NCBI GenBank assembly: GCA_021801565.1 | Contig: JAJYXV010000015.1 | Span: forward strand, 91,168-155,167 | Direction: 5' to 3' | DNA: 64,000 bases | Source of the DNA: a bacterium | Lineage (GTDB): Bacteria > Patescibacteriota > Minisyncoccia > UBA6257 > GWB1-50-10 | Part shown: piece by piece, positions 2,432 to 61,152 of the stretch | Numbering within the stretch: the first letter of the stretch is position 1 | Layout: each line of letters begins with the position of its first letter | Translations under genes and position numbers: made by a program | Notes under the pieces: generated by a model | Seen by the model: the letters and a program-made list of their open reading frames with translations, nothing else | Told to the model about the DNA's origin: nothing | The model's database searches: none

Positions 2432-4921
2432 CTATTTTTTATAAACAATAAATCGCGATTGAGTAACCGATCCAGATGAGTCGGTTACTTTTATCTCAAA
2501 AAGGTTTTGTGGGTCAAGTGTGGTATTGAAATAGTATTGATATTTATACACTACACCCTCTATATCAAAACCATTTATAAGACGATCGTTTATAAAAAGT
2601 TCAATTCTTTTCAGTTCTTTATTTTTTCCCGCCCGTATATTCGCTTGTATAATAAACGGAGAGGAAAGAAAATCGCCATTTTTTGGATAAGTAGTATTTA
2701 TTGTTGTTTTTTCATTCGTTTCGACCCCCGCACCACTTACGTTAGTGTTTTCGCGATCTGAAGAAAACGAAACATCTCCAGAAATTGATTGATTCCATAA
2801 ATAAGAATCGGGTATATGTGTATGTGCCCAATTTAATACCCCAGTTTCCCAGTTTTTAAACTGCGGATCATTCGCGGGATTTTCTGGTCTCGGGCCAAGG
2901 GGATTTTCTTTATCAATGTAATACAAAATTGAATGTATTTGTGGATATGTCTTTCCTTGGATTATTGGTTTCCATATATATTCCCCGTTTATCATTGGTT
3001 TTGGTGTATAAGGAATTGGGTCTGGTTTTGTAAATGTTTCTGGTTCGTATTTTTTTATAACATCTCGTAAAAACAAGTTCCAAATAGGAACCGCAGCGAG
3101 AATACTACTTCCTTGTCGTATCATGGGTGTGTTGTCGTTATTTCCGGCCCAAGCACCCACAACGAGAAATGGAGTATACCCAACAACCCACGCGTCTCTG
3201 TGGTCACCAGATGTTCCTGTTTTCAATGCCACATCGTACCCATCATAAACAGTGAGAGGAAGAGAACTTCCAAAAATTGGTGCACGGAGCTCTGGTGTTG
3301 AAAGAATTTGTGTAACAAGCCGTATTGACTGTGTGTCGTCAAACACCCTTTTTGTATTATCTGTATATTCTTCTAATACATTTCCCTCCGTGTCTTCTAT
3401 TTTTAAAATAAACACCTGTTCATGTCTCACCCCCTCTTGTGAAAGAGTTCCATATGTGTTTACAAGATCAATCAGTTTTACTTCTCCTCCGCCAAGAACC
3501 AAGGATAGACCGTATCTCCACGTTTCTTTAAGTGTGCTGATACCGAAATCATGAAGTGTTTTTAACGAATCATCCATTCCGGCGAGATATAATAATTTTA
3601 CAGCGGGAATGTTAAATGATTGTGCAAGGGCATTTTCAAGCGTGACGGGTCCGTGTTCTTTTTCATCGAAGTTTTGCGGACGATAACTTGTTTCTGGGGA
3701 ATCTCTTAAGTCAAATTCAGTATTCACATCAAAAAGGACTGTTTTGGGAGAATATCCCTTGTGAAATGCGGTGAGATATACAAATGGTTTTAGTGCGGAT
3801 CCTGGTTGTCTTAATCCTTGCGCCGCAACATTAAAATTTCCATCATTCTTTGTATCAAAGTAATCCCTAGAGCCCACCAAGGCCAAAACTTGACCTGTTT
3901 TTGGGTCTTCTGCAACCAACGCCGCATTGTTAGCGCCATACATTTTTTCGTTGTTTTTAGAGCCTTCTAGAACCGCTTTTTCGGCAGTTTCTTGCATATT
4001 CCAATCAAGCGTAGTGATAACCTTAAGACCACCGTTATTCACCAACTCCTCCCCATATTTATTTATGAGATAGTCCTTTACCATAAGAGAGAAATGAGGC
4101 GCTTTTATTGACCCCAAAGAGGGGGGAGAAAAAACTATTTCTTTCTTCTTTATTTTTTCTACGCTCTGTTTTTCTATAAAACCAAGTTCAGCCATTCTAT
4201 CTAAAACGTAATTTTTTCTATCAATTAAATCTTTTGTGTGAGATCCCCATGGAGAAAAATAACTCGGAGCTTTTAACATGCTTGCAAGTACAGCGGCCTC
4301 CTCTGGAGAAACGTTTCGAATTGATTTTCCAAAATATGTTTGACTTGCCGCCTCAACCCCATACGCGTTTGATCCATATGGTATTTGATTGAGGTAAAAA
4401 TAAAAAATTTGATCTTTCGAATATTTTGATTCGAGTTCTAGTGCGAGAACAAGTTCTTTTATTTTACGCGCGATTGTTTTTTCCGAGCTTAAAAAAATAT
4501 TTTTTGCCAATTGCTGAGTGATGGTTGATCCACCTTGCGCCACCTTTCCTTCCCGTAAATTTGTGTAGAGAGCCCTTAGAATTGCTTTCCAATCAAAGGC
4601 TGGTTGATTGTAAAAATCCGCATCTTCAGCTGCGAGCGTCGCCTTTTTTACCACATCGGGAATTTCTTCAAATGGAATAACAGTTCTTTTCTCCTCCCCG
4701 TGTATTTCATAAAGGACCACCCCGCCGGTTTTATCGTAAATCTTGGTTGATTGATTCGCTCTTCGAACATTAAATTGCTCCGGAGAGGGAAGGGTTTGTA
4801 TGAGAATTGCAACATATAAAGAACCAACAACCAGAAGCCCAAAAGATCCAAATATAAAAATAGACCAAAATGTTTTGGCAAACGATTTGTTTTTTGTTCC
4901 TACACGCCTTTTTTTGATCAT
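2432..4921 (-). CDS. Class A penicillin-binding protein (bifunctional glycosyltransferase/transpeptidase) with an extra C-terminal extension of about 200 aa.
   Basis: N-terminal TM helix. Transglycosylase motifs (GGSTITQQLAKN, RKIKE). Transpeptidase SALKPF (SxxK), SGD and KTGT motifs. Confidence 0.85.
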   Translation of the reverse strand: MIKKRRVGTKNKSFAKTFWSIFIFGSFGLLVVGSLYVAILIQTLPSPEQFNVRRANQSTKIYDKTGGVVLYEIHGEEKRTVIPFEEIPDVVKKATLAAEDADFYNQPAFDWKAILRALYTNLREGKVAQGGSTITQQLAKNIFLSSEKTIARKIKELVLALELESKYSKDQIFYFYLNQIPYGSNAYGVEAASQTYFGKSIRNVSPEEAAVLASMLKAPSYFSPWGSHTKDLIDRKNYVLDRMAELGFIEKQSVEKIKKKEIVFSPPSLGSIKAPHFSLMVKDYLINKYGEELVNNGGLKVITTLDWNMQETAEKAVLEGSKNNEKMYGANNAALVAEDPKTGQVLALVGSRDYFDTKNDGNFNVAAQGLRQPGSALKPFVYLTAFHKGYSPKTVLFDVNTEFDLRDSPETSYRPQNFDEKEHGPVTLENALAQSFNIPAVKLLYLAGMDDSLKTLHDFGISTLKETWRYGLSLVLGGGEVKLIDLVNTYGTLSQEGVRHEQVFILKIEDTEGNVLEEYTDNTKRVFDDTQSIRLVTQILSTPELRAPIFGSSLPLTVYDGYDVALKTGTSGDHRDAWVVGYTPFLVVGAWAGNNDNTPMIRQGSSILAAVPIWNLFLRDVIKKYEPETFTKPDPIPYTPKPMINGEYIWKPIIQGKTYPQIHSILYYIDKENPLGPRPENPANDPQFKNWETGVLNWAHTHIPDSYLWNQSISGDVSFSSDRENTNVSGAGVETNEKTTINTTYPKNGDFLSSPFIIQANIRAGKNKELKRIELFINDRLINGFDIEGVVYKYQYYFNTTLDPQNLFEIKVTDSSGSVTQSRFIVYKK

Positions 4922-29006: not shown

Positions 29007-29094
29007 TGTAAGCCCTATTAGAAATTAGTCAAAACTAACCACGGCTCGTATAAGCAGAGACAACTCTAGGTTACAAGAAAAAACTTTAATACAG

Positions 29095-29411
29095 TGGAGG
29101 TGGAGAGATTGAACCCTCTTCCAAAAATTTATTCACACATATTCTACAAGCTTAGTTTTGAACGAAAGTTCAGAACAATGATGCCTTGCGTTATTTAACT
29201 CCGAGCGGAGCAAAGCAAATCCGTATTCAGAGCGGTTCTCATAATAACACCGGTGATCCTCTATGAGACATGAAGGGCCGATGCCGCGCTACGCGTAAGC
29301 GAGTGCGGGGACTGCGTTAAAATTGGCAGTTATAATTTGTTGAACAGTTGTCGAGATATTCAGCTCGGCCTGCTATGTATAAATATAATCTCTGTCGATA
29401 CGTGCACCCCC
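29095..29411 (-). ncRNA. ssrA: tmRNA (SsrA), adjacent to smpB. The tag reading frame is read by hand as A-NFNAVPALAYA.
   Basis: Minus strand 5' GGGGGUG..GUAUCGAC (tRNA-like D region). 3' GAGGGUUCAAUCUCUC-CACCUCC-A, a T arm plus an acceptor strand complementary to the 5' GGGGGUG. Internal ORF GCC AAT TTT AAC GCA GTC CCC GCA CTC GCT TAC GCG TAG at 29289-29327. Confidence 0.65.
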
Positions 29412-29991: not shown

Positions 29992-31599
29992 ATGATAAAA
30001 GAGGAGATATTTGAATTAGTAAAAAATATAATTCCAGCCGGTACCCCGTTTGATGTGGAATTTCAAGAAGAAGGGAAGTTTGGCCACTATTCAACAAGTG
30101 TGGCATTTGCGCTTGCAAAAAAAGAAAAAAAATCTCCTGAGATTGTTGCAAAAGAAATTATTGAAACACTTCAAAAAAATGAACTATTTGAGAAGATTGA
30201 AATTGCCGCGGGGGGATTTATTAATTTTTGGGTTTCAAAAAAGACGTTATATGAAGAATTGAAAGACATATTGGAAAGAAAAAATACATATGGACAGAAT
30301 GAAAAAGGGAGGGAGAAGAAAATAAGAATTGAATATGTTTCAGCAAACCCAACGGGCCCGATTCATATTGGAAATGCTCGCGGAGGTCCTTACGGAGAAA
30401 GTCTTGCACGTGTGTACGAAGAAAGTGGGTATGAAGTGCTCCGCGAATATCTCCATAATGATGTGGGGGGACAAATTGAAAAATTAGGCGAAACACTGTG
30501 GTATTGGTATGAAAAAAAAGTTGGAAGAGAAACAGCGTTTCCGGAGGGTGGATATCAGGGAGAATACCTTGAAGAGGTAGTAACTGCGGCACTTAAAAAA
30601 TTTAAAAATAAAGAGGATATCACCATTCAAACACTTACAAAGTTTGGGCTTGATTATATATTCGAGAACAACATGAACGTTTTAAGAAGAATGGGAATTC
30701 TTTTTGATCTCATTCGAAAGGAGAGTGAACTTATTTCTTCCGGAAAGACACAAGAAGCGATCGATGTCACAAAGAGAATGGGTGCCACAAAAGAGCACGA
30801 AGGGGCGCTATGGTTCGTTCCCAGAGATGAATTTCTAGAGGATAGAGAAGCGGTTATTGTAAAAAGCAATGGAAAACCAACATATTTTGCCTCTGATATT
30901 GCATATCATAAGGAAAAATTTGAGTCAGGATATGATCTAGTGATTGATATATTCGGGAGTAATCACCACGGGCACGTGCCGAAACTTCAGGCGCTTACAA
31001 AATTGTTTCACTTTGATTCAGATGCATTTAAAGTACTCCTTTATCAATTTGTGCGGGTAAAGCGGGGAAGTGAGGTAATAAAAATGTCAAAACGTGCGGG
31101 GACATACGTGACTGCAGAGGAGCTTCTTGATGAAGTAGGAAAAGATAATATGATATTTTCCCTTCTTTCGAGTGCACCAACAACACACATTGATTTTGAT
31201 CTAGATGCAGTAAAGCAAAAATCAATGCAGAACCCCGTATATTATACGCAGTATGCATATGTGCGAGCAAAAAGCATTGGTGCGAAGACCGGGGTATTTG
31301 TATTGAATTCGGATACCAATCTTGAATTTCTCAGCACAGACGAAGATTTATTTCTTATAAGAAAACTAGCGCAATTTCCTGATATAATCGACGCATGCGT
31401 AAATGATTTTGAAGTACATCGACTCACGCGGTATGCGACTGAGCTGGCCCGGGCGTTTCATAATTTTTATGAAAAAGAACGCGTAATTGGGGAGGATGAA
31501 AAAGTGTTTCAAGCGAGAATTTTTCTTATTGAGGCGGTAAAAATAGTGTTTGAAAATCTCTTTAGAATTATTGGTATTAGTACTCCTGAAAGTATGTAA
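29992..31599 (+). CDS. argS: Arginine--tRNA ligase.
   Basis: HIGH-type motif PTGPIHIGNARG. KMSK(R) motif KMSKRAG. ArgS anticodon-binding C-terminus. Confidence 0.9.
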   Translation: MIKEEIFELVKNIIPAGTPFDVEFQEEGKFGHYSTSVAFALAKKEKKSPEIVAKEIIETLQKNELFEKIEIAAGGFINFWVSKKTLYEELKDILERKNTYGQNEKGREKKIRIEYVSANPTGPIHIGNARGGPYGESLARVYEESGYEVLREYLHNDVGGQIEKLGETLWYWYEKKVGRETAFPEGGYQGEYLEEVVTAALKKFKNKEDITIQTLTKFGLDYIFENNMNVLRRMGILFDLIRKESELISSGKTQEAIDVTKRMGATKEHEGALWFVPRDEFLEDREAVIVKSNGKPTYFASDIAYHKEKFESGYDLVIDIFGSNHHGHVPKLQALTKLFHFDSDAFKVLLYQFVRVKRGSEVIKMSKRAGTYVTAEELLDEVGKDNMIFSLLSSAPTTHIDFDLDAVKQKSMQNPVYYTQYAYVRAKSIGAKTGVFVLNSDTNLEFLSTDEDLFLIRKLAQFPDIIDACVNDFEVHRLTRYATELARAFHNFYEKERVIGEDEKVFQARIFLIEAVKIVFENLFRIIGISTPESM

Positions 31600-32106: not shown

Positions 32107-32817
32107 TTATTTCCTCATTCTTTGTGCTTTTTCTTTCCAATCGTTTATTTCTTCGGCGGAGAATGTACTATCTTCGTTTTTTGTGCCAAATATCTTTATT
32201 TTTCTATTCATTGTATCTGTTGCGACACCATTCCAAATAGTGCCTGACGTATATACCTCCCACACCCCCCCATTCCAGTCAGTGAGTTCAAATTTTCCTT
32301 CGTCTCTCTTTGTGATTTTTCCTGAAATGAGACCCCTTTCTGGATGAGACCAGATATCTTTTTTGTCGTATATAAAATCTTCATAAAAAGGGATGTTATT
32401 TGATGCAAGTTCATGAACTGTTTCTCCTACCCCTAAAAAATGTCCGATTCCTCCCAATGCAACACTCAGTAATATTGCACCCCCGATTATAAAATGCGGC
32501 ATATACCGATAACCTGTTTTTGTATTTTTGAATTCAATGTATATAACAAGAGAGAGAATAATAAGGAGAATAATCCAAAAATAAGGGAGACTTATTATTA
32601 AAAATTCAAAAAATGTTTTTCCCACCATTTCATACATTTCCCAGTCATGATCGGTAAGCGAAAAAAATATGACTCCCGATGCGGCACCGCCGATAAGCAC
32701 GGTACTTCCAAGAAGAACCCATAATCCGATATGTTCAACAACAAAAAGCCATTTTGGTTTTTTTGTTATCTCCCCGCTTTTTATTTTTTCGATGATATTT
32801 TTATCTATATCGTTCAT
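32107..32817 (-). CDS. Membrane protein, possible anti-sigma factor, translationally coupled to the upstream ECF sigma gene.
   Basis: Its start overlaps the sigma-gene stop by 4 nt. Multiple TM helices. Confidence 0.35.
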   Translation of the reverse strand: MNDIDKNIIEKIKSGEITKKPKWLFVVEHIGLWVLLGSTVLIGGAASGVIFFSLTDHDWEMYEMVGKTFFEFLIISLPYFWIILLIILSLVIYIEFKNTKTGYRYMPHFIIGGAILLSVALGGIGHFLGVGETVHELASNNIPFYEDFIYDKKDIWSHPERGLISGKITKRDEGKFELTDWNGGVWEVYTSGTIWNGVATDTMNRKIKIFGTKNEDSTFSAEEINDWKEKAQRMRK

Positions 32818-33434
32818 AGTTCTGTGTGTATGCTTTTTTCTACGACTATATTTTTAAATTTTTCTTTTGCTCGTTTAATAAGCACAGAAATCGTTCCAAT
32901 GGGCTTTTGGAGAATATCAGATATTTCTTCATAATCCCTTTCTTCTAAAAATCTTAATACTAGTACATCGCGATATTTTTTGTCGAGCGCGCCAAGTGCT
33001 TCCATGATATGTTCGTGTATTATTTTTTTATCAAGTTCTTTTTCTATATCGGTATCTGCAGCAATCTTTTCTGCGAGTGTTCCCTCTTCGTTTTCTTCTT
33101 GGTATGTAAATGACGAAAATGGAATTGTTTTTACTTTTCGTAGATAACTTATGGTTTCATTGTGCGCAATGCGGTATATCCATGAAGAAAATTTTAAAGA
33201 AGTATCGAAATCATTTAAATTTTTATATGCCTTGATAAATGTTTCTTGGAGTATTTCTTCCATGTCTTCATTGGAAAGAGAGCTAATTCTTTTTATATAT
33301 CGCGCGAGCTTTTGCTTATATCGATCAATAAGAAGTGCATACACATCGTCGCGTTTCAACGTTTCGAGAACAAGATCCTCATCCGCCTTTCCTTTATATA
33401 TTTCCGCATTCACTATTTTATGTAATACGTCCAT
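32814..33434 (-). CDS. ECF-type RNA polymerase sigma factor.
   Basis: Region 2 LQETFIKAYKNLNDFD..FSSWIYRIAHNETISYLRK. Region 4 ISDILQKPIGTISVLIKRAKEKF. Confidence 0.8.
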   Translation of the reverse strand: MDVLHKIVNAEIYKGKADEDLVLETLKRDDVYALLIDRYKQKLARYIKRISSLSNEDMEEILQETFIKAYKNLNDFDTSLKFSSWIYRIAHNETISYLRKVKTIPFSSFTYQEENEEGTLAEKIAADTDIEKELDKKIIHEHIMEALGALDKKYRDVLVLRFLEERDYEEISDILQKPIGTISVLIKRAKEKFKNIVVEKSIHTEL

Positions 33435-33538
33435 ATGCCACTATTTCTTTCGGTTTTATATATGCATTATTATACAAATACAGTAATAGTCCATATAAAT
33501 TTTGTAAAAATCCGTTTTTTTGTTTAAAATTGATAAAT

Positions 33539-36500
33539 ATGCTGAGACGAACAGATAAATTTTTACTTCCCGATATTGAGGAAAAAGTTCTTGATTTTTG
33601 GGATAAACATGATGTTTTTGCCCGTTCACTTACAAAAAATAAAGGAAAAAAATTCATTTTTTACGAAGGACCTCCGACCGCGAACGGAAAACCAGGAATT
33701 CATCATATACTTTCGCGTTCTTTTAAAGACGTGATATTGCGCTATAAAACAATGCGTGGATATGTCGTTCCAAGAAAGGGGGGGTGGGATGTTCATGGGT
33801 TGCCTGTCGAGCTCGAGGTGGAAAAACAACTTGGTTTTTCTTCGAAGAAAGAAATTGAAAAGTTTGGTATTGCTGAATTCAATCAGAAATGTAAAGAATC
33901 GGTTTGGAAATATAAAGATGAGTGGGAAAAGATTACTAGGCGAATGGGATTTTGGCTTGATCTGAAAAATCCATACATTCCATATCAGAATTCATATATA
34001 GAGACCTTGTGGTGGATTTTAAAATCAATTGGAGAAAAAAAATTACTTTACCAAGGACACAAAATTGTTCCATGGTGTGCGCGGTGTGGCACGGGGCTTT
34101 CTTCACATGAGTTGGCACTTGGTTATCGTGAGGTGGAAGAAAATTCTGTGTATATAAAATTTCATCTCTTGCCAAACCAAAAGTTCGGAAAATCGGGGAA
34201 ATATAAAACAAAAGAAAATGCCTATATATTATCTTGGACCACGACTCCTTGGACACTTCCTGGAAATGTCGCTCTTGCAGTCGGAAAAAATATAACCTAT
34301 GTAGGCGTGCGAATTGATGGTGAAAAAGATCTTTTTATTCTTGGTGAAGACACGGTAGATAAGGTTCTTGCTGGACATGCTATAGAAAAAGTTCACACTC
34401 TCACAGGAAGCGATCTTATTGGTCTAGAATATAAACCACTTTTTAATGTTTCTACGATAAAAAAAATAGATAAGAAAGAAAAGGCATATAAAGTTTACTC
34501 CGCGGATTTTGTAACCACCACAGACGGAACCGGCGTAGTGCACACCGCTGTTATGTATGGAGAAGATGATTATGTTTTGGGGAAACAAATCGGATTGCCG
34601 GAATATCACACAGTGAATGAACAGGGAAAGTTTGTTGAGGGGATTGAGGAACTTTCCGGATTATCTGCGAAAGACACGAAAACAGATGACAAAATATTTG
34701 AATTGTTAAAAAAGAAAAAATTTTTCCTTCGAACGGAGAAATATAAACACGAATATCCGTTTTGCTGGCGTTGTGATTCTCCGCTTCTCTACTATGCAAG
34801 AAGTTCGTGGTTTATTGCAATGAGTAAATTGAGAGATGTGCTTATTGCGGAGAATAAAAAAATAAATTGGGTTCCTGGACACTTGAGAGATGGAAGGTTT
34901 GGAGAATGGATACGTGAGGCGAAAGATTGGGCTATATCACGTGAGCGATACTGGGGCACACCACTTCCGGTCTGGAAATGTAGTTCTTGTGGATCAGAAA
35001 AAATCGTGGGAAGTATAGATGAATTCAAGGAGGCACTTGGAGGCGGAACAAACCGTTATGTTTTTATGCGGCACGGTCAGGCAGAGAACAACACAAAACA
35101 TTTGCTGAATTGTTGGCCCGAACCAGTAAAATTATCCCTTACCCTTCAAGGAAGAACACAGGTTGAAAAAACTGCACGTACGTTGAGAAAAGAAAAAATA
35201 GATATGATTTTTGCCTCAGACATAACACGAACGAAACAAACCGCGGAGATAGTAAAAGAAGTTATTGGATTTAAAGATAAAATTATGTTTGATGCGCGGC
35301 TCCGGGAGTTTGATTTTGGCGATTTTAACGGGAAAAAATATGAATTGTATCAGCCATATTATAGTTCTCGTTTGGAGAAATTCACGAAGCGGACGCCAAA
35401 TGGAGAAAATCATACCGACCTAAGAAGGCGTTTGTTTGAATTTCTTGTCGAAATAGAGAAGAAATACAAAAACAAAACAATTCTTGTAGTAACTCACGAT
35501 GGACCAGTCTATATGCTCCACTCAATTATAAATGGATGGTCGACAGAGGACCAATTGATTGAAAAAGAAAAAAGAGGGTATGACTATATTAAAAACGGAG
35601 GGATCGAAAGAGGAATTATGAAAAATGTTCCGCGTGATACCACGGGATCATTTGACCTTCATCGTCCGTTTATTGATGAGTTTCAATTCATTTGTAAAAA
35701 ATGCAAGGGAATAATGAAACGAGTTCCTGAGGTGGTTGATGTGTGGTTTGATTCTGGGGCAATGCCATTTGCACAATCACACTATCCATTTGAAGGGAAA
35801 AATAAACTTGCATATCCGGCCGATTATATTTCTGAAGGAATCGATCAAACACGCGGATGGTTTTATACACTCCTTGCGGTTGGGGTGCTTACGGGAAAAG
35901 GAACTCCGTTCAAAAATGTTATTTCTTCTGGTCTCATTCTTGATAAAAACGGACAAAAGATGTCGAAATCAAAAGGAAACATCGTTAATCCGTGGGATAT
36001 AATAAAGAAACACGGAATAGATGTGGCACGGTGGTATTTTTATACCACGAATCCACCAGGAGAATCAAAACGCTTCGACGAAATGGAACTCGGGAAAATA
36101 TCGCGCCAGCTTTTTCTACTCCTTTATAATTCATTTGTATTTTTTGATTTATACGGTGCAAAAATAAAAAACAAAACACTTCCTACCTCTCTTCCGCTTC
36201 TTGATAGGTGGATATTGGGAAGACTTACAGAGACAATCGAAAAAGTAACAAAGGGATTTGAAACATATGATATTGGAAGCGCGGGAAAGGCGATTGAATT
36301 GCTTGTTGACGATCTTTCGAGATGGTATATTCGTCGCTCAAGAAAGAGATTTCAAAAACCAGAAAACAAGAAAGATTATGAAACAGCAACCCGTGTTCTA
36401 GGGTTTGTACTTACTGAAATAAGCAAACTTATGGCGCCCTTCACTCCATTTTTTGCGGAGGCATTGTATCAATCACTTATTGGTAAAAAACTTTCTGTGC

Positions 36501-37054
36501 ATTTGGATGAGTGGCCAACCGCGAATAAAAAATTTATTGATAAAGATATGTTTACTCGCATGAACGAGGTGCGTACTATAGCAAGTCTTGCTCTTGCAAA
36601 ACGTGCAGAATTGGGAATTAAAGTACGTCAACCGCTTGCGTCAATTACGTTACCCGCAAAAACATCAGTGTTGAAAGGAGAGCATACGTATCTTGATATT
36701 TTGAAAGATGAGATAAATGTGAAAAATGTAATTTTCTCTAGCCAAACAAAAGAGCAGATGACGCTAGACACAGTAATTACACACGAATTAAAAGAAGAGG
36801 GATGGTTGAGAGAGCTTACGCGGGCTATCCAGGATTTGCGCCAGGATGCAAAACTACAACCGAAGGATATAATTGAGTTGTATATTGAAACATCGGAAGA
36901 ACTCAATTTTGTAGTAACAAAATGGAATAATGAACTGAAAAAATCGGTGAATGCAAAAAATATTCTGTTTTCTAAGCCGAAGGTATTTCATGCAGAAATA
37001 GAAACAAAAATTGATGAATGGCCGATAAAGTTTGCTATAAAGAAAAATAAATAA
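33539..37054 (+). CDS. ileS: Isoleucine--tRNA ligase (type 2) carrying a complete histidine-phosphatase (His_Phos_1/PGM-family) domain of about 200 aa inserted at about nt 35030-35660.
   Basis: HIGH region PTANGKPGIHH. Editing domain WTTTPWTLPGN. KMSKSKGN. Flanks of the insert are canonical IleS (..RERYWGTPLPVWKCSSCGS.. and ..DLHRPFIDEF..KCKGIMKRVPEVVDVWFDSGAMPF). The insert has RHG (VFMRHGQAENN), R (SDITRTKQTA), E (LREFDFGDFNG) and H (VVTHDGPVY). Confidence 0.85.
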   Translation: MLRRTDKFLLPDIEEKVLDFWDKHDVFARSLTKNKGKKFIFYEGPPTANGKPGIHHILSRSFKDVILRYKTMRGYVVPRKGGWDVHGLPVELEVEKQLGFSSKKEIEKFGIAEFNQKCKESVWKYKDEWEKITRRMGFWLDLKNPYIPYQNSYIETLWWILKSIGEKKLLYQGHKIVPWCARCGTGLSSHELALGYREVEENSVYIKFHLLPNQKFGKSGKYKTKENAYILSWTTTPWTLPGNVALAVGKNITYVGVRIDGEKDLFILGEDTVDKVLAGHAIEKVHTLTGSDLIGLEYKPLFNVSTIKKIDKKEKAYKVYSADFVTTTDGTGVVHTAVMYGEDDYVLGKQIGLPEYHTVNEQGKFVEGIEELSGLSAKDTKTDDKIFELLKKKKFFLRTEKYKHEYPFCWRCDSPLLYYARSSWFIAMSKLRDVLIAENKKINWVPGHLRDGRFGEWIREAKDWAISRERYWGTPLPVWKCSSCGSEKIVGSIDEFKEALGGGTNRYVFMRHGQAENNTKHLLNCWPEPVKLSLTLQGRTQVEKTARTLRKEKIDMIFASDITRTKQTAEIVKEVIGFKDKIMFDARLREFDFGDFNGKKYELYQPYYSSRLEKFTKRTPNGENHTDLRRRLFEFLVEIEKKYKNKTILVVTHDGPVYMLHSIINGWSTEDQLIEKEKRGYDYIKNGGIERGIMKNVPRDTTGSFDLHRPFIDEFQFICKKCKGIMKRVPEVVDVWFDSGAMPFAQSHYPFEGKNKLAYPADYISEGIDQTRGWFYTLLAVGVLTGKGTPFKNVISSGLILDKNGQKMSKSKGNIVNPWDIIKKHGIDVARWYFYTTNPPGESKRFDEMELGKISRQLFLLLYNSFVFFDLYGAKIKNKTLPTSLPLLDRWILGRLTETIEKVTKGFETYDIGSAGKAIELLVDDLSRWYIRRSRKRFQKPENKKDYETATRVLGFVLTEISKLMAPFTPFFAEALYQSLIGKKLSVHLDEWPTANKKFIDKDMFTRMNEVRTIASLALAKRAELGIKVRQPLASITLPAKTSVLKGEHTYLDILKDEINVKNVIFSSQTKEQMTLDTVITHELKEEGWLRELTRAIQDLRQDAKLQPKDIIELYIETSEELNFVVTKWNNELKKSVNAKNILFSKPKVFHAEIETKIDEWPIKFAIKKNK

Positions 37055-37062
37055 TATAAATT

Positions 37063-37716
37063 ATGTTTTTAGAGTCACCAATAACCGATGGAAAAAAATT
37101 AGATATAAACGAATTACGAGGGATCATAACAGAAATAGATAAAGAAGAAAGAGAAAATGCGGGAGAAAAAAAATTTTCAGCCGAAATGACAAAACGCGCG
37201 TTCGAGGCATTATGTGATGCATTTAAATCAGTGGGAGCGGAGGAGTTTGGGAATATTCAAGAGTTGTACAATAAAATTCCAAATAAGACGCTTGTGAGGC
37301 GTGAGGACCCAAAGAAACTATTCGATCTTATTGCAGATAAAAAAGATATTAACCTCAATTTTGATCAAGAAATTGTTGGAGAAAAAGGTGATGCATATGC
37401 AAATTGTGCAGAGTATATGGGTGGCAAGGGTTTGGTGAATGCATTTAATGAAGGGTGGAGCCATTTAGGTGGTGTTACTACGGTTATGGGTTTTGGGAAT
37501 GGTGATGATTATACAGTAGAAATTCCAGAAGATTCCATGGTAAAAATTGGAGATTTAGACAGACAATGCGTAAGAATCGTGAAGGGGACAATACATGACA
37601 AAAACGTAAAATTTGTCGTGATACGCGCCCCACAAAAATTTATCGACCCAGTTTCGACGGATTTAGAGAAAAAGAAATTTGTGTTCCGCGGGTATCTGTT
37701 TAACAACATAAACTAG
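37063..37716 (+). CDS. Hypothetical protein.
   Basis: 217-aa ORF with no recognisable motif. Confidence 0.4.
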   Translation: MFLESPITDGKKLDINELRGIITEIDKEERENAGEKKFSAEMTKRAFEALCDAFKSVGAEEFGNIQELYNKIPNKTLVRREDPKKLFDLIADKKDINLNFDQEIVGEKGDAYANCAEYMGGKGLVNAFNEGWSHLGGVTTVMGFGNGDDYTVEIPEDSMVKIGDLDRQCVRIVKGTIHDKNVKFVVIRAPQKFIDPVSTDLEKKKFVFRGYLFNNIN

Positions 37717-37769: not shown

Positions 37770-38327
37770 TCACATTTTTTTTACTGCAAGAACAAAATAC
37801 TCCAAGAACGTTTCAAATCCAAGTAATGTTCCTTCGGTGATATGTTCCACTTCATTTTCTGAAAGAGAAGTAGGATTTCCAGTTTTTTCACACACAATTC
37901 TTTCTATTATTTCTTTCCATGTGCTCCTCGCCCTTTCTAAAAATACATCCCACGATTCTTTTAAAAAGATTGGTGCTATCTTTTTGTATGCGCCAAAAAA
38001 CTCATTTTTTACAGATATATTATTCCTCTCTCCATTTTCTTTTTTTTGACACCGTACACACCTAATTGCACCGGGAATTGCTTTTAATCGTTCAGTTGGT
38101 ATTTCTTGGCGACAATTGATGCAAATCCCATAACACCCCGTATCTATTTGTCTCAGGGCGATAATCAGATTTGGAACCACATTGCGTATTTTGTGGTCCT
38201 CGTATGGCGACAGAACAGTTTTAGAAAAGAATGGTTTGTATTTTTCCAATCTTCTTTCAATTCGCTTTTTTTGTTGCGAAATAAACTCAGAATTTTTTTC
38301 TCTTTCGCCAATATTTTCAATGAACAC
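37770..38327 (-). CDS. DksA/TraR-family C4 zinc-finger protein.
   Basis: CYGICINCRQEIPTERLKAIPGAIRCVRC (Cx2Cx17Cx2C), typical of the DksA/TraR/YteA family. Confidence 0.55.
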   Translation of the reverse strand: MFIENIGEREKNSEFISQQKKRIERRLEKYKPFFSKTVLSPYEDHKIRNVVPNLIIALRQIDTGCYGICINCRQEIPTERLKAIPGAIRCVRCQKKENGERNNISVKNEFFGAYKKIAPIFLKESWDVFLERARSTWKEIIERIVCEKTGNPTSLSENEVEHITEGTLLGFETFLEYFVLAVKKM

Positions 38328-45127: not shown

Positions 45128-46678
45128 TTATGTTAATTGTTCGAGAAGGCTTTGTCCCGTCATTTCCTTTGGTTTTTGAATTCCCATAAGCATAAGAATT
45201 GTCGGAGCGACATCGGAAAGAAGTCCTATAACTGGGGGTCGCGATGGTTTTGGAGATGTGTTTTGTTTTTGGAATTCCTTTCCAATGAGGTAAAAGGGGA
45301 CTGGGTTTGCGTCATGCTTTGTTTCTGGCTGTCCGGTTTGCGTACTAATAAGTGTTTCCGCATTTCCATGATCTGAAGTAATAATAAGAATGTGATTTTG
45401 TGCGAGTGTTGCATTAATGAGTCGTTCCATTTCAACGTTGATCACGCGGACCGCTTGTACTGTGGCATCAAAATCTCCGGTGTGGGCGATAATATCTGGA
45501 TTTGCATAATTTACGAGTATGAAATCAAATCCTCCTTCATTCAATGCGACGATTACTCTATCGGTAATCGCACTTGCCATCATTTCTGGATGCTCTTCAT
45601 AATGAGCTACATTTTTTGATGGAATAAGAACGCGATATTCGTTCGGATATGGTTTTTCCTGAAGTCCATTGAAGAAATAGGTTACGTGTGCATATTTTTC
45701 CGTTTCCGCGATACGTAATTGTACTCGTCCAGCGTCAGAGATAACTTTTCCAAGCGGATTGATAATATCTTCTCTTTTAAATGCAACTGGCACAGAAAAG
45801 TCATCTCGATATTCTATCATTGTGGTAATAAGGAGATTTTGGAATTTTTTTGTCTGAAATATTGAAAACTCTGGATTTACAAATGCCTCGACAATTTGTC
45901 TCATGCGATCTTCTCTAAAGTTAAAAAAAAGAATTGAATCCCCGTCTTTAATTGGGTTCACTTTTTCAATGATGGTTGGTTCTATATATTCATCATTGAG
46001 CTTTTTCCTGTATATTTCCTCTATTGCGTTCTGCGCGTTTGTAATACGAACGGTTTCTGGGTGTACCAACATGTTATATGTTTTTTCCGTTCGATCCCAG
46101 TGTTTGTCTCTGTCCATGGCATAATATCTTCCTATGAGTGTGGCGATTGTTCCTATACCATATTTTTTTATTTCTTTTTCTAATTTTTCTATGTATGTTG
46201 TAATAAGTTGTGGTGCGCTATCTCTCCCATCACTGATAATATGTATACACACACGTGGACACCCCTCTCTTTTTGCCATATCAAGAAGTGCTATAAGATG
46301 TGTAAATGCTGAATGAACAACTCCCTCACCAACGAGGCCAATCAAATGAAGCGTGCCGTTGTTTTTTTTTGCATGTGCGAACGAGTTTTTTAAAACTTCA
46401 TTTTTAAAAAAAGTTCCCTCTTCTATTGCGAGCGTGATCCTTGGATAGTGCTGATAAAATACCCTTCCTGCCCCGATGGTAAGATGTCCAATTTCGCTGT
46501 TTCCTTCTTCATCCCATGGCATTCCAATTGAAATGCCAGATGCTTGAAGCGCACCATACGGAAAGTTCTCTTCGATAAATTTGAACGTGTTTAGTTGTGC
46601 CTGATGAATTGGGTTTGATTCGTCTGCCCTTCCAAATCCCCACCCATCAAGAATAACAAGTGTACAAATACGCTTCAT
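45128..46678 (-). CDS. gpmI: 2,3-bisphosphoglycerate-independent phosphoglycerate mutase.
   Basis: N-terminus LVILDGWGFG.. and metal-binding Ser/His/Asp motifs of iPGM. 516 aa. Confidence 0.9.
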   Translation of the reverse strand: MKRICTLVILDGWGFGRADESNPIHQAQLNTFKFIEENFPYGALQASGISIGMPWDEEGNSEIGHLTIGAGRVFYQHYPRITLAIEEGTFFKNEVLKNSFAHAKKNNGTLHLIGLVGEGVVHSAFTHLIALLDMAKREGCPRVCIHIISDGRDSAPQLITTYIEKLEKEIKKYGIGTIATLIGRYYAMDRDKHWDRTEKTYNMLVHPETVRITNAQNAIEEIYRKKLNDEYIEPTIIEKVNPIKDGDSILFFNFREDRMRQIVEAFVNPEFSIFQTKKFQNLLITTMIEYRDDFSVPVAFKREDIINPLGKVISDAGRVQLRIAETEKYAHVTYFFNGLQEKPYPNEYRVLIPSKNVAHYEEHPEMMASAITDRVIVALNEGGFDFILVNYANPDIIAHTGDFDATVQAVRVINVEMERLINATLAQNHILIITSDHGNAETLISTQTGQPETKHDANPVPFYLIGKEFQKQNTSPKPSRPPVIGLLSDVAPTILMLMGIQKPKEMTGQSLLEQLT

Positions 46679-59583: not shown

Positions 59584-61152
59584 ATGAAAGAGTTTTTAAT
59601 TCCAGAAGAAATACAAGAAATAGCGGAAACGCTTACACGAAATGGATATGAAGCATATCTCGTTGGGGGATGTGTGCGTGATCTTTTGATTGGTAATTCA
59701 CTAACCGGCGGACCGAAGGATTGGGACATTACCACAAATGCACATCCAAAAGAAATACAAAAACTTTTTTCCACCTTCGCGGGTGCTACGGCGGACAAGC
59801 CCGCAACCGTGTATGAAAATGATTTTGGGACGGTGGGAATAAAAACAAGATCAGAGGATTCTACATTAAAAGTTGTTGAGGTGACCACGTTTCGTATTGA
59901 GGGGACATATTCAGATAAGCGCCACCCGGATGAAATAAAATTTGCAAAAACAATTGAAGAAGATTTATCACGAAGAGATTTTACGGTGAATGCGATGGCG
60001 CTTTCGTTAACTAATAACCCACAACAAACAATTCACAATAAGAGAAAAGAAAATGTTGTCGGTAGTAAGTTGTCGGTTGTTGGTCTACTTATTGATCCAT
60101 ATAGAGGACAGGAAGATTTGAAGGATAAAATTATCCGCACGGTGGGAGATGCAGAAAAGCGATTTAATGAAGATGCGCTTCGGTTGTTGCGTGCAGTGCG
60201 TCTTTCCGCACAGCTCGGATTCGAAATAGAACAAGAAACACAAAAAGTAATAAAGAAAAATGCGCCACTGTTAAAGCATATCGCCGAAGAACGAATTCGC
60301 GACGAGTTCCAAAAACTTATTATGACTCCGCGCGCCGCTGAAGGAATGTTTATGCTTCAAAAGTTCGATTTGCTTGAGTATATTATTCCCGAACTTTTGG
60401 AAGGAGTTGGGTGCAAACAAAACAAACACCACGTCTACACAGTATTTGAACATAACGTGCGGGCACTTGAATATGCAACAGAAAAAAATTATTCACTTGA
60501 GGTGCGTCTAGCGTCGCTTTTACATGATGTTGGAAAACCACGGACAAAAAGTGGGAGCGGAGAAAGTGCAACATTTTATAATCATGAAATGGTTGGTGCG
60601 CGAATGGCCAAAGATGTGCTTGATCGACTTCGATTTCCCCGCGATCTCGTACAGAAAGTGCGCCATCTCATCCGTTACCACATGTTCTACTATAATGTGG
60701 GAGAAGTAAGCGAGGCTGGGGTGCGGCGATTTATCGCACGCATCGGAGTTGAAAATATAGATGATATTTTGAGTGTGCGTGAGGCTGATCGTGTTGGTTC
60801 AAAAGTACCAAAGGCATTTCCCTACAAACTCCGTCATCTTCTTTTTATGATTGACAAGGTGCGTCACGATCCGGTGCATCCAAAAATGCTCGCGGTAAAA
60901 GGCGATGATATTATGAGATTTTTAAATATTCCAGCTGGTCCGCGCATAGGCGATATATTATTTGTACTTCTCGAGGAGGTGTTAGATGATCCATCAAAAA
61001 ACACAAAGGAGTATCTTAAGGAAAAAGTAAAAGAGCTTGGGGTGCTTTCTCTTGTTGAATTAAGAAAACTTGCAGATGAGGGGAGAAAAAAAAGAGACTC
61101 GATTGAAGAGGGGGTTGAAAATGACATAAAAAAACGCTATTTTGTGAAATAG
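59584..61152 (+). CDS. cca: CCA-adding tRNA nucleotidyltransferase with a C-terminal HD domain.
   Basis: Head motif GGCVRDLLIG..DWDI. RRDFTVNAM. HD domain HHVYTVFEHN..LLHDVGK. Confidence 0.85.
   Translation: MKEFLIPEEIQEIAETLTRNGYEAYLVGGCVRDLLIGNSLTGGPKDWDITTNAHPKEIQKLFSTFAGATADKPATVYENDFGTVGIKTRSEDSTLKVVEVTTFRIEGTYSDKRHPDEIKFAKTIEEDLSRRDFTVNAMALSLTNNPQQTIHNKRKENVVGSKLSVVGLLIDPYRGQEDLKDKIIRTVGDAEKRFNEDALRLLRAVRLSAQLGFEIEQETQKVIKKNAPLLKHIAEERIRDEFQKLIMTPRAAEGMFMLQKFDLLEYIIPELLEGVGCKQNKHHVYTVFEHNVRALEYATEKNYSLEVRLASLLHDVGKPRTKSGSGESATFYNHEMVGARMAKDVLDRLRFPRDLVQKVRHLIRYHMFYYNVGEVSEAGVRRFIARIGVENIDDILSVREADRVGSKVPKAFPYKLRHLLFMIDKVRHDPVHPKMLAVKGDDIMRFLNIPAGPRIGDILFVLLEEVLDDPSKNTKEYLKEKVKELGVLSLVELRKLADEGRKKRDSIEEGVENDIKKRYFVK

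Follow-up and report, generated by a model that had tools for sequence, protein, structure and literature searches.

The DNA analysed here, called the window throughout, is a 64,000-nucleotide stretch of contig JAJYXV010000015.1 (assembly GCA_021801565.1, positions 91,168 to 155,167) from a bacterium of the Patescibacteriota, and the gene in question is ileS, which encodes a type-2 isoleucyl-tRNA synthetase (IleRS2) carrying a histidine phosphatase domain within its catalytic core. An uninterrupted + strand open reading frame (ORF) at 33335-37054, with its TAA stop at 37052-37054, spans the insert region; the likely start of ileS is the ATG at 33539 (MLRRTDKF...), which gives a protein of 1171 residues. 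The features of the gene, in window coordinates and with residue counts from the 120 homologues and, for the linker and KMSKS, conservation in the 64-sequence alignment A1, both described below, are the following.

33539-37054, + strand: ileS, type-2 isoleucyl-tRNA synthetase (IleRS) with phosphatase insert (continuous ORF, TIGR00392)
33695-33706, + strand: class-I signature in the non-canonical form GIHH, residues 53-56 (from the sequence)
34235-34543, + strand: CP1 editing motifs WTTTPWTLPGN (residues 233-243) and GTGVVH (residues 330-335) (from the sequence)
34979-34990, + strand: first CxxC zinc knuckle of CP3, C481/C484, conserved and equivalent to the Thermus thermophilus CP3 zinc motif
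35027-35653, + strand: histidine phosphatase (branch 1) insert with its linkers, residues 497-705 (Pfam His_Phos_1)
35069-35077, + strand: RHG motif, R511, phospho-acceptor H512 and G513 (R and H in 120/120 homologues, G in 116/120)
35228-35230, + strand: second phosphate-binding Arg, R564 (120/120)
35306-35308, + strand: general acid/base E590 in LREFDFGDFNG (E in 118/120, D in 2/120)
35495-35497, + strand: second catalytic His, H653 (120/120)
35630-35647, + strand: C-terminal linker PRDxxG, residues 698-703, returning the chain to IleRS (P698, R699 and G703 at least 90% conserved)
35654-35704, + strand: DLHRPFID block and second CxxC knuckle, C719/C722, where IleRS resumes (aligns to 1ILE from residue 487 onward)
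35957-35971, + strand: KMSKS motif, residues 807-811 (K807, M808, S809 and K810 invariant)
36203-37045, + strand: anticodon-binding domain and type-2 C-terminal domain (DUF5915) (Pfam Anticodon_1 2e-32, DUF5915 5e-17)

The initial annotation, made from the letters alone, had described a frame continuous on both sides of an insert of about 205 residues at the junction of the zinc-knuckle region and the DLHRPxxD block, carrying the four catalytic signatures of a branch-1 histidine phosphatase in the right order, and all of this stands; its view that the insert looks like a functional phosphatase or mutase embedded in the synthetase is supported as well. The translation of 35027-35660 is identical to the peptide it quoted and lies in frame 0, the remaining two frames being rich in stops, while the profile searches it had proposed return His_Phos_1 for the insert and IleRS for the whole protein. 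Within the full-length protein, His_Phos_1 (PF00300) matches residues 508-669 (2e-31, 109.6 bits vs gathering score 21.7), and the insert on its own scores slightly higher (E = 7.3e-33, 114.3 bits vs the same 21.7); the insert has the PF00300 catalytic residues (RHG, second Arg, Glu/Asp, second His) in family order. The flanks align to residues 10-478 and 487-821 of the T. thermophilus enzyme (1ILE), so that some 205 residues replace about 8. Conserved CxxC knuckles, C481/C484 and C719/C722, flank the insertion point on either side and place it in the CP3 subdomain, which is zinc-binding in Thermus IleRS and variable among IleRSs (PMC7191050). An AlphaFold2 (AF2) model of the insert alone is confident (predicted local distance difference test, pLDDT, 95.3; predicted template modelling score, pTM, 0.92); the insert is wholly accounted for by the phosphatase fold, with the alpha/beta architecture of the family. 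In the AF2 model of the full-length protein (pLDDT 88.7, pTM 0.79), the PRDxxG linker reaches a pLDDT of ~91, suggesting that the modelled connection is ordered rather than floppy.

The host enzyme is a recognizable IleRS in its own right. Pfam tRNA-synt_1 matches it at 2e-117 in two stretches, the best covering residues 17-499, and the NCBIfam equivalog model for ileS, TIGR00392, is passed with 888.9 bits (cutoff 621.4). NCBIfam groups the protein with type-2, MupA/B-like enzymes, and the MupA and MupB models themselves (NF000257 and NF000258; 752 and 772 bits vs 1900) and the model for IleRS with a GNAT domain (NF040702; 324 bits vs 1999) are not reached; a Pfam scan of the whole protein found no acetyltransferase family. 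Its nearest solved structures are 1ILE and the Priestia megaterium IleRS2 8C8V (TM 0.81). In an alignment of 64 phosphatase-bearing homologues (alignment A1), the GIHH and KMSKS motifs, the CP1 editing motifs and the zinc cysteines are all kept: G53 and H55 are at least 90% conserved and H56 is invariant, as are the CP1 residues W233, T234-T236, W238, T239, G330, G332, V334 and H335, so the CP1 editing site looks intact. Because the signature motifs are intact, we infer that the window IleRS aminoacylates tRNA-Ile; no second ileS was seen within the 64-kb window. The GIHH sequence belongs to the G/AXHH variant of the class-I signature, which is the mupirocin hyper-resistance motif of IleRS2, conferring up to 1000-fold higher resistance, and which is frequent in IleRS2 generally (86/163) (PMC10485003).

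The same architecture is found well beyond the window. A search of ~5.8 billion proteins yielded 120 full-length homologues with 52-100% identity, drawn from NCBI, JGI, ENA and Logan assemblies and named by their submitters as Patescibacteria group, Ca. Paceibacterota, Minisyncoccia, Ca. Jorgensenbacteria or Ca. Parcubacteria, several ENA "Saccharibacteria" labels appearing generic; many of these proteins are labelled by NCBI only as "class I tRNA ligase family protein". PF00300 is present in 120/120, and the insert measures 202-214 residues in every one. Apart from its catalytic residues, the insert evolves faster than its host (mean column conservation over the 120 homologues 0.57 for the insert remainder vs 0.72 for the IleRS core), and the alignment shows a complete phosphatase whose predicted active site is under strong purifying selection. 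This conservation also bears on whether the arrangement could be an artefact, be it through chimeric assembly, a frameshift at a join, an intein or the recent arrival of a mobile element. A chimeric join is excluded because the architecture recurs in independent NCBI, JGI, ENA and Logan assemblies, with identical junctions in >200 independently assembled homologues; the frame is continuous, both junctions are conserved, and the GC content of the insert matches that of its host gene (0.384 vs 0.380 for the rest of ileS). We therefore regard an artefact as hardly credible. The initial annotation had named a frameshift or an assembly join as what would overturn it, and neither was found; it had also denied an intein or a decayed fusion, in line with the catalytic residues kept across the 120 homologues and with the Pfam scan of the whole protein, which returned no intein/Hint, homing or endonuclease family at the insertion. 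The intein or mobile-element candidate was accordingly rejected, no such domains being present and the junctions being ancient and conserved.

As to the kind of histidine phosphatase, the acid/base motif LREFDFGDFNG pairs with LREIHLGDWEG of PhoE and has the phosphatase-type pattern LRExxxGxxxG. The closest structures are PspA (4IJ5), GpgP (6S2Q), PhoE (1H2E/1EBB), CobC and the riboflavin-pathway HFP, all metabolic phosphatases. Among the NCBIfam models, CobC is not reached (TIGR03162, 88.0 bits vs 162.9), nor is PspA (NF045917, 61.5 bits vs 350), although PspA is the best structural match. A protein phosphatase of the SixA type (TIGR00249) was considered and rejected, at 29 bits vs 74.5 and with a capped insert fold where SixA is cap-less. 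Because all NCBIfam equivalog cutoffs are missed widely, the insert is, by its sequence, a superfamily member outside every characterised NCBIfam family, and it constitutes a separate subfamily, whose Paceibacteria forms have a WPE loop following RHG. Unlike PhoE, PspA, GpgP and CobC, which are free-standing, the window-type phosphatase is found inside IleRS or encoded beside it.

The model with the highest NCBIfam score is that of the archaeal cofactor-dependent phosphoglycerate mutase (dPGM), which raises the alternative that the insert is the dPGM of the cell fused to IleRS. However, the score of 89.8 bits lies far below the cutoff of 225, pgm_1 gives 33.9 bits vs 81.7, every PRK dPGM model tested falls far under its cutoff (the dPGM models include NF038349 and TIGR01258), and the acid/base motif is of the phosphatase type, as in PhoE. 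Moreover, the genome has a cofactor-independent enzyme, which is not part of the feature itself:

45128-46678, - strand: gpmI, cofactor-independent phosphoglycerate mutase (Pfam iPGM_N 1e-76, Metalloenzyme 4e-62)

With gpmI present, the insert is not needed as a glycolytic mutase, as the initial annotation had already argued from the same gene. The dPGM identity was rejected on these grounds (sub-cutoff scores, phosphatase-type motif, gpmI), and we hold it to be very improbable.

The initial annotation had asked whether the insertion is confined to one lineage. The 120 homologues carry it at the same place, and elsewhere the phosphatase stands alone upstream of ileS or occupies other sites in IleRS. 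Scoring 1.84 billion representative proteins with a profile of the insert gave 513 representatives at E <= 1e-30, the best 150 of which are IleRS fusions (full length or fragments) together with ~45 stand-alone proteins of 187-205 residues, here called hp, that score as high as the fused domains. Every long protein checked among these best 150 bears IleRS-type motifs. Among stand-alone members the catalytic residues are retained almost without exception (42-44 of 44), and the two forms are interleaved in nearest-neighbour analysis, stand-alone and fused domains sharing 34% mean identity and fused domains 35% among themselves. The stand-alone family is large (of the candidates scored, 4457 reach E <= 1e-15), and its annotation is generic only.

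Seven stand-alone members, 33-100% identical to one another, were looked up in their genomes; in 7/7 the next gene downstream is an ileS without insert, separated by -4 to +129 nt, and the gene just before is usually argS. A profile built from seven stand-alone sequences, scanned against one genome per species, recovered 63 loci, mostly named Ca. Staskawiczbacteria, with some named Nealsonbacteria or "Patescibacteria group". Wherever downstream sequence exists, ileS follows on the same strand in 58/59 loci: it abuts hp in 41 of the 63, follows after a spacer of 84-2118 nt in 14, and contains the domain at CP3 in 3, while 4 loci stop at a contig edge and a single one, a 33%-identical paralogue, has no ileS nearby. 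This paralogue (L068, 1770-2369, in the same metagenome-assembled genome as L011) is beside neither ileS nor argS, so the subfamily can exist unlinked. The gene for arginyl-tRNA synthetase (ArgRS) lies upstream in 58/63 loci. At L072 the usual place of argS is taken by genes for an AbiEii-family toxin and a DUF6922 protein (2738-3677), a probable toxin-antitoxin pair, and the hp-ileS link persists there with argS displaced. In the related loci L001, L073, L074 and L075, smpB, infC, rpmI and rplT cluster with argS-(hp)-ileS, placing the phosphatase within a conserved translation-gene neighbourhood. The stand-alone hp is probably translationally coupled to ileS. In fused relatives, ileS::hp comes directly after argS and a separate hp gene is missing (L050, L055, P0016 and P0002, the last 83% identical and from GCA_040757555.1), and in the close relatives L075 and L076 the argS-ileS gap is only 68 nt. 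The insert would then be the fused form of the ~190-residue gene that stands immediately upstream of ileS in sister Patescibacteria (argS-hp-ileS), the stand-alone gene having presumably been lost in the window lineage and its domain retained inside ileS (argS-ileS::hp).

Fusion has apparently not been restricted to CP3. When the phosphatase domains were excised and the remaining IleRS sequences aligned, at least four insertion points emerged: site A, the CP3 loop, as in the window IleRS; site A', the second CP3 knuckle (P0200, P0136); site B, after WFDSG...HYPF (P0155, P0179, P0254, P0136); and site C, past the helix that ends in ...TYA and ahead of the LDxW with which the anticodon-binding domain begins (P0155, P0179, P0174). 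In sequence, the sites fall in the KMSKS-side half of the catalytic domain. IleRSs of the P0155 type lack the CP3 insert and have two phosphatase domains, at B and C; P0155 relatives are named Ca. Gracilibacteria, Peregrinibacteria or Peribacteria, the taxonomy of these variant architectures being that of the NCBI names of relatives. Among 120 such relatives, 44 have the domain at C only, 40 at A only and 5 at B only, 8 combine B and C, 2 combine A and C, 1 combines A and B, and 2 have all three; sites are ambiguous in 5, and 13 have no phosphatase site. An IleRS thus holds 1-3 copies, or 4 in one partial ORF (P0121, 1161 residues on a 3947-bp contig), the highest number observed, where four successive histidine-phosphatase domains follow an N-terminal class-I synthetase half. 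The catalytic residues are kept in all copies examined, including both copies of the two-domain variants. Together, these data show a coupling of the phosphatase to IleRS, both in the genome and within the protein, that arose independently in several forms, the count of independent insertions resting on alignment and motif positions without a reconciled phylogeny.

Other enzymes occupy the same loops. Some IleRSs hold RimI-like GNAT, serine hydrolase, DUF559 or IS200-like Y1 domains there, and others hold AAA_33/Zeta-type P-loop kinases, which in NCBIfam match seryl-tRNA(Sec) kinase best, though weakly. In other settings, enzymes of the types represented by the kinase, the RimI-like N-alpha-acetyltransferase and the serine hydrolase have tRNA 3' ends or aminoacyl esters as their targets. 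Gracilibacteria/Peregrinibacteria-type IleRSs can carry GNAT and His_Phos domains together, and an automated JGI gene name reads [quoted passage not shown]. P0337 has two tandem HAD-IA phosphatase domains at site B and no His_Phos domain, which hints that phosphatase activity itself is selected. IleRSs of 1200-1860 residues bearing Gracilibacteria, Peregrinibacteria or Peribacteria names include P0277, P0288, P0290, P0317, P0327, P0337, P0354, P0358-P0360 and others, and IleRS looks like a hot spot of enzyme insertion in bacteria so named.

The reading that we prefer, to which we give about an even chance, is that the window encodes a competent phosphatase of the small-molecule type within CP3 of an editing-competent IleRS2, a fused form of hp that serves the synthetase as an accessory site. 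The domain would be a branch-1 histidine phosphatase acting as a phosphomonoesterase, like PhoE, PspA and GpgP. By the chemistry of the family, R511, R564, N518 and H653 would hold the terminal phosphate, H512 would attack it to form a phospho-histidine, E590 would protonate the leaving group, and water would then free the phosphate. As an accessory active site, the domain would act on a phosphorylated ligand of the aminoacylation core, with a logic like that of CP1 editing. That the phosphatase serves IleRS is argued by the IleRS motifs in all the long proteins checked among the best 150 profile matches, by the recurrence of insertions in the KMSKS-side half of the catalytic domain, by the ordered and conserved C-terminal linker PRDxxG, by the expansion in copy number, and by the relative in which HAD phosphatase domains stand in place of His_Phos. 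The likeliest candidate ligand would be tRNA-Ile whose 2'/3' end is blocked by phosphate or pyrophosphate ("end healing"), or else a by-product nucleotide. CP1 editing and the end-healing enzymes that pair a kinase with a phosphatase are the models for this tentative suggestion, held at a confidence well short of even, in which the substrate is either a phosphate-blocked tRNA-Ile acceptor end or a nucleotide that the adenylate site binds or produces. Equally tentative is the wider proposal of a further cis-acting phosphatase site that surveys or repairs the tRNA-Ile acceptor end or the adenylate-site ligand and that, with the kinase, N-alpha-acetyltransferase, HAD and esterase modules in the same loops of Gracilibacteria-type enzymes, would make IleRS a hitherto unrecognised modular platform for quality control or end healing.

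Several points weigh against this interpretation. All the nearest structures are small-molecule phosphatases with capped pockets, none being a nucleic-acid or protein phosphatase. The apparent specificity for IleRS is that of the long proteins checked among the best 150 matches. Adjacency to ileS, though conserved, is no proof of a functional link; the E. coli order ribF-ileS-lspA is conserved with no known mechanistic link. The unrelated inserted domains, including the DUF559 nuclease-like and IS200-like Y1 transposase domains, could mean that the ileS loops are merely permissive landing sites. Finally, no housekeeping process is known to us by which the ends of tRNA-Ile in particular would be left carrying phosphate.

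These points feed the main rival, in which an active housekeeping phosphatase, unrelated in function to aminoacylation and acting for example on a sugar phosphate, a phospho-amino acid or a nucleotide, was captured repeatedly from the operon into permissive IleRS loops, where constitutive co-expression in a minimal genome is guaranteed. The metabolic nature of the nearest structures fits such a hitch-hiker, as does the range of GNAT, kinase, HAD, hydrolase, DUF559 and Y1 inserts, a variety suggesting that the loops are tolerant and perhaps that mobile elements drove the insertions, and adjacency would presumably favour recombination into ileS over other genes. On the other hand, the long proteins checked among the best 150 profile matches all show the motifs of IleRS, the link is kept across IleRSs with differing signature motifs and at L072, where argS is not upstream, and the conserved, confidently modelled PRDxxG linker points to a fixed attachment rather than beads on a string. 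Independent insertion at three to four sites, with expansion in copy number, would also be hard to explain without selection for tethering. We consider this capture rather unlikely as the explanation.

The co-inserted enzymes suggest a further, minor rival, an on-target resistance module in which the phosphatase would inactivate a phosphorylated IleRS inhibitor or an isoleucine/adenylate antimetabolite, the GNAT, kinase and serine hydrolase doing a like job in other lineages. Acetyltransferases, phosphotransferases and hydrolases are the classical antibiotic-modifying classes, all present in related IleRSs, and GNAT enzymes, MccE and RimL among them, render aminoacyl-nucleotide inhibitors harmless; the G/AXHH signature of the host likewise points to a history of inhibitor pressure, although, as given above, it is common in IleRS2. 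Yet the phosphatase is of ancient date and occurs almost throughout a bacterial class, which fits a housekeeping role better, no meaningful match to the PADLOC defence-system library was found, and to our knowledge no IleRS inhibitor carries a phosphomonoester. We judge a resistance role unlikely.

A second minor rival starts from P0354 and P0360, in each of which a P-loop kinase and a phosphatase lie within one IleRS. The domain might be a regulatory phospho-switch or sensor, dephosphorylating IleRS (and so reversing a HipA-like or built-in kinase) or binding a phosphorylated metabolite or alarmone, with charging being tuned and catalysis secondary. The kinase/phosphatase pair PFK-2/FBPase-2 resembles this combination, and PGAM5, Sts-1 and SixA are protein phosphatases of the family. 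We find such a switch decidedly improbable, and the accessory site of IleRS remains our preferred reading.

The rest of the window adds the following genes.

29092-29411, - strand: tmRNA gene, just upstream of argS
29992-31599, + strand: argS, arginyl-tRNA synthetase, the conserved upstream syntenic partner of hp/ileS (Pfam)
32107-33434, - strand: ECF-type sigma factor (206 residues) and an overlapping membrane protein of 236 residues, between argS and ileS (no Pfam match for the membrane protein)
37063-37716, + strand: ORF of 217 residues with no Pfam match, starting 9 nt past the ileS stop
37770-38327, - strand: DksA/TraR-type zinc-finger protein
59584-61152, + strand: CCA-adding enzyme with a C-terminal HD domain, unlinked to ileS

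The 236-residue membrane protein is a possible anti-sigma factor. The genes at 37063-37716 and 37770-38327 are absent beside ileS in the relatives examined and look like lineage-specific additions outside the feature. HD domains of the CCA-adding family can have phosphatase or phosphodiesterase activity, and the CCA-adding enzyme is relevant to any idea of tRNA 3'-end repair. The 64-kb window holds neither a tRNA-Ile gene nor a second His_Phos gene.

Aminoacyl-tRNA synthetases are among the best-studied enzymes, and their known accessory catalytic modules are editing domains. Here a conserved, catalytically intact phosphatase lies in the core of IleRS, at several independent positions, or is encoded as its tightly coupled neighbour, across hundreds of genomes. 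Should its substrate be tRNA-Ile or a ligand of IleRS, the charging, repair or protection of tRNA would include a step not recognised so far, and one important enough for some of the smallest bacterial genomes known to retain it. If it is an unrelated rider, nature would offer a striking case of a domain entering an essential enzyme again and again, of use to protein engineers and to the study of genome streamlining. In both cases, the sites at which IleRS permits insertion are defined, and a large set of genes named generically as "histidine phosphatase family protein" gains a function-linked handle.

With respect to known systems, a literature search found no paper on an isoleucyl-tRNA synthetase with a histidine phosphatase, a 2026 survey of domain insertion does not mention phosphatases, and recent papers on IleRS phylogeny, resistance and domain evolution (including PMC10485003) make no mention of phosphatase, GNAT or Candidate Phyla Radiation (CPR) inserts. 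The T. thermophilus 1ILE and P. megaterium IleRS2 (8C8U-W) structures have the same domain order and type-2 C-terminal domain as the window IleRS; the Thermus enzyme shares its zinc-binding CP3, and the G/AXHH variant is described for IleRS2. The window IleRS differs from these solved enzymes by the ~205 extra residues of the CP3 loop that form a second enzyme, and the structure search returned no solved IleRS with a phosphatase insert. The curated precedent for an IleRS with an inserted accessory enzyme is NF040702, [quoted passage not shown], whose GNAT domain the window IleRS lacks; the scan of the window IleRS returned no NCBIfam model naming a phosphatase-containing IleRS.

The CP1 editing domain of IleRS and of the valyl- and leucyl-tRNA synthetases (ValRS, LeuRS) offers a parallel, since it is a second hydrolytic site set in the Rossmann fold and acting in cis on the tRNA 3' end. 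The insertion point of CP1 differs between bacterial and archaeal LeuRS, much as that of the phosphatase varies between lineages. However, the two folds are unrelated, CP1 hydrolysing an ester and the phosphatase a phosphomonoester through a phospho-histidine, and cis action on tRNA, a feature of CP1, is for the phosphatase only hypothesised. Branch-1 histidine phosphatases fused to enzymes of nucleic acids or nucleotides are known elsewhere, for example the RNase H/acid phosphatase Rv2228c (NF005567), the Nudix-histidine phosphatase MutT1 (9CXX, 3FJY) and PFK-2/FBPase-2, but these are joined end to end rather than inserted in a core, and none involves an aminoacyl-tRNA synthetase. T4 polynucleotide kinase-phosphatase is a tRNA end-healing enzyme whose phosphatase is of the HAD type. 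It provides a possible functional analogy for those IleRS variants in which a P-loop kinase and a phosphatase (His_Phos or, once, HAD) sit together on a tRNA-binding enzyme, with no shared sequence membership. Together, these comparisons indicate that a synthetase with an added catalytic module is known and that a phosphatase in this role is, as far as we could find, apparently undescribed; should the phosphatase act on tRNA, there is a real chance that it represents a new functional category.

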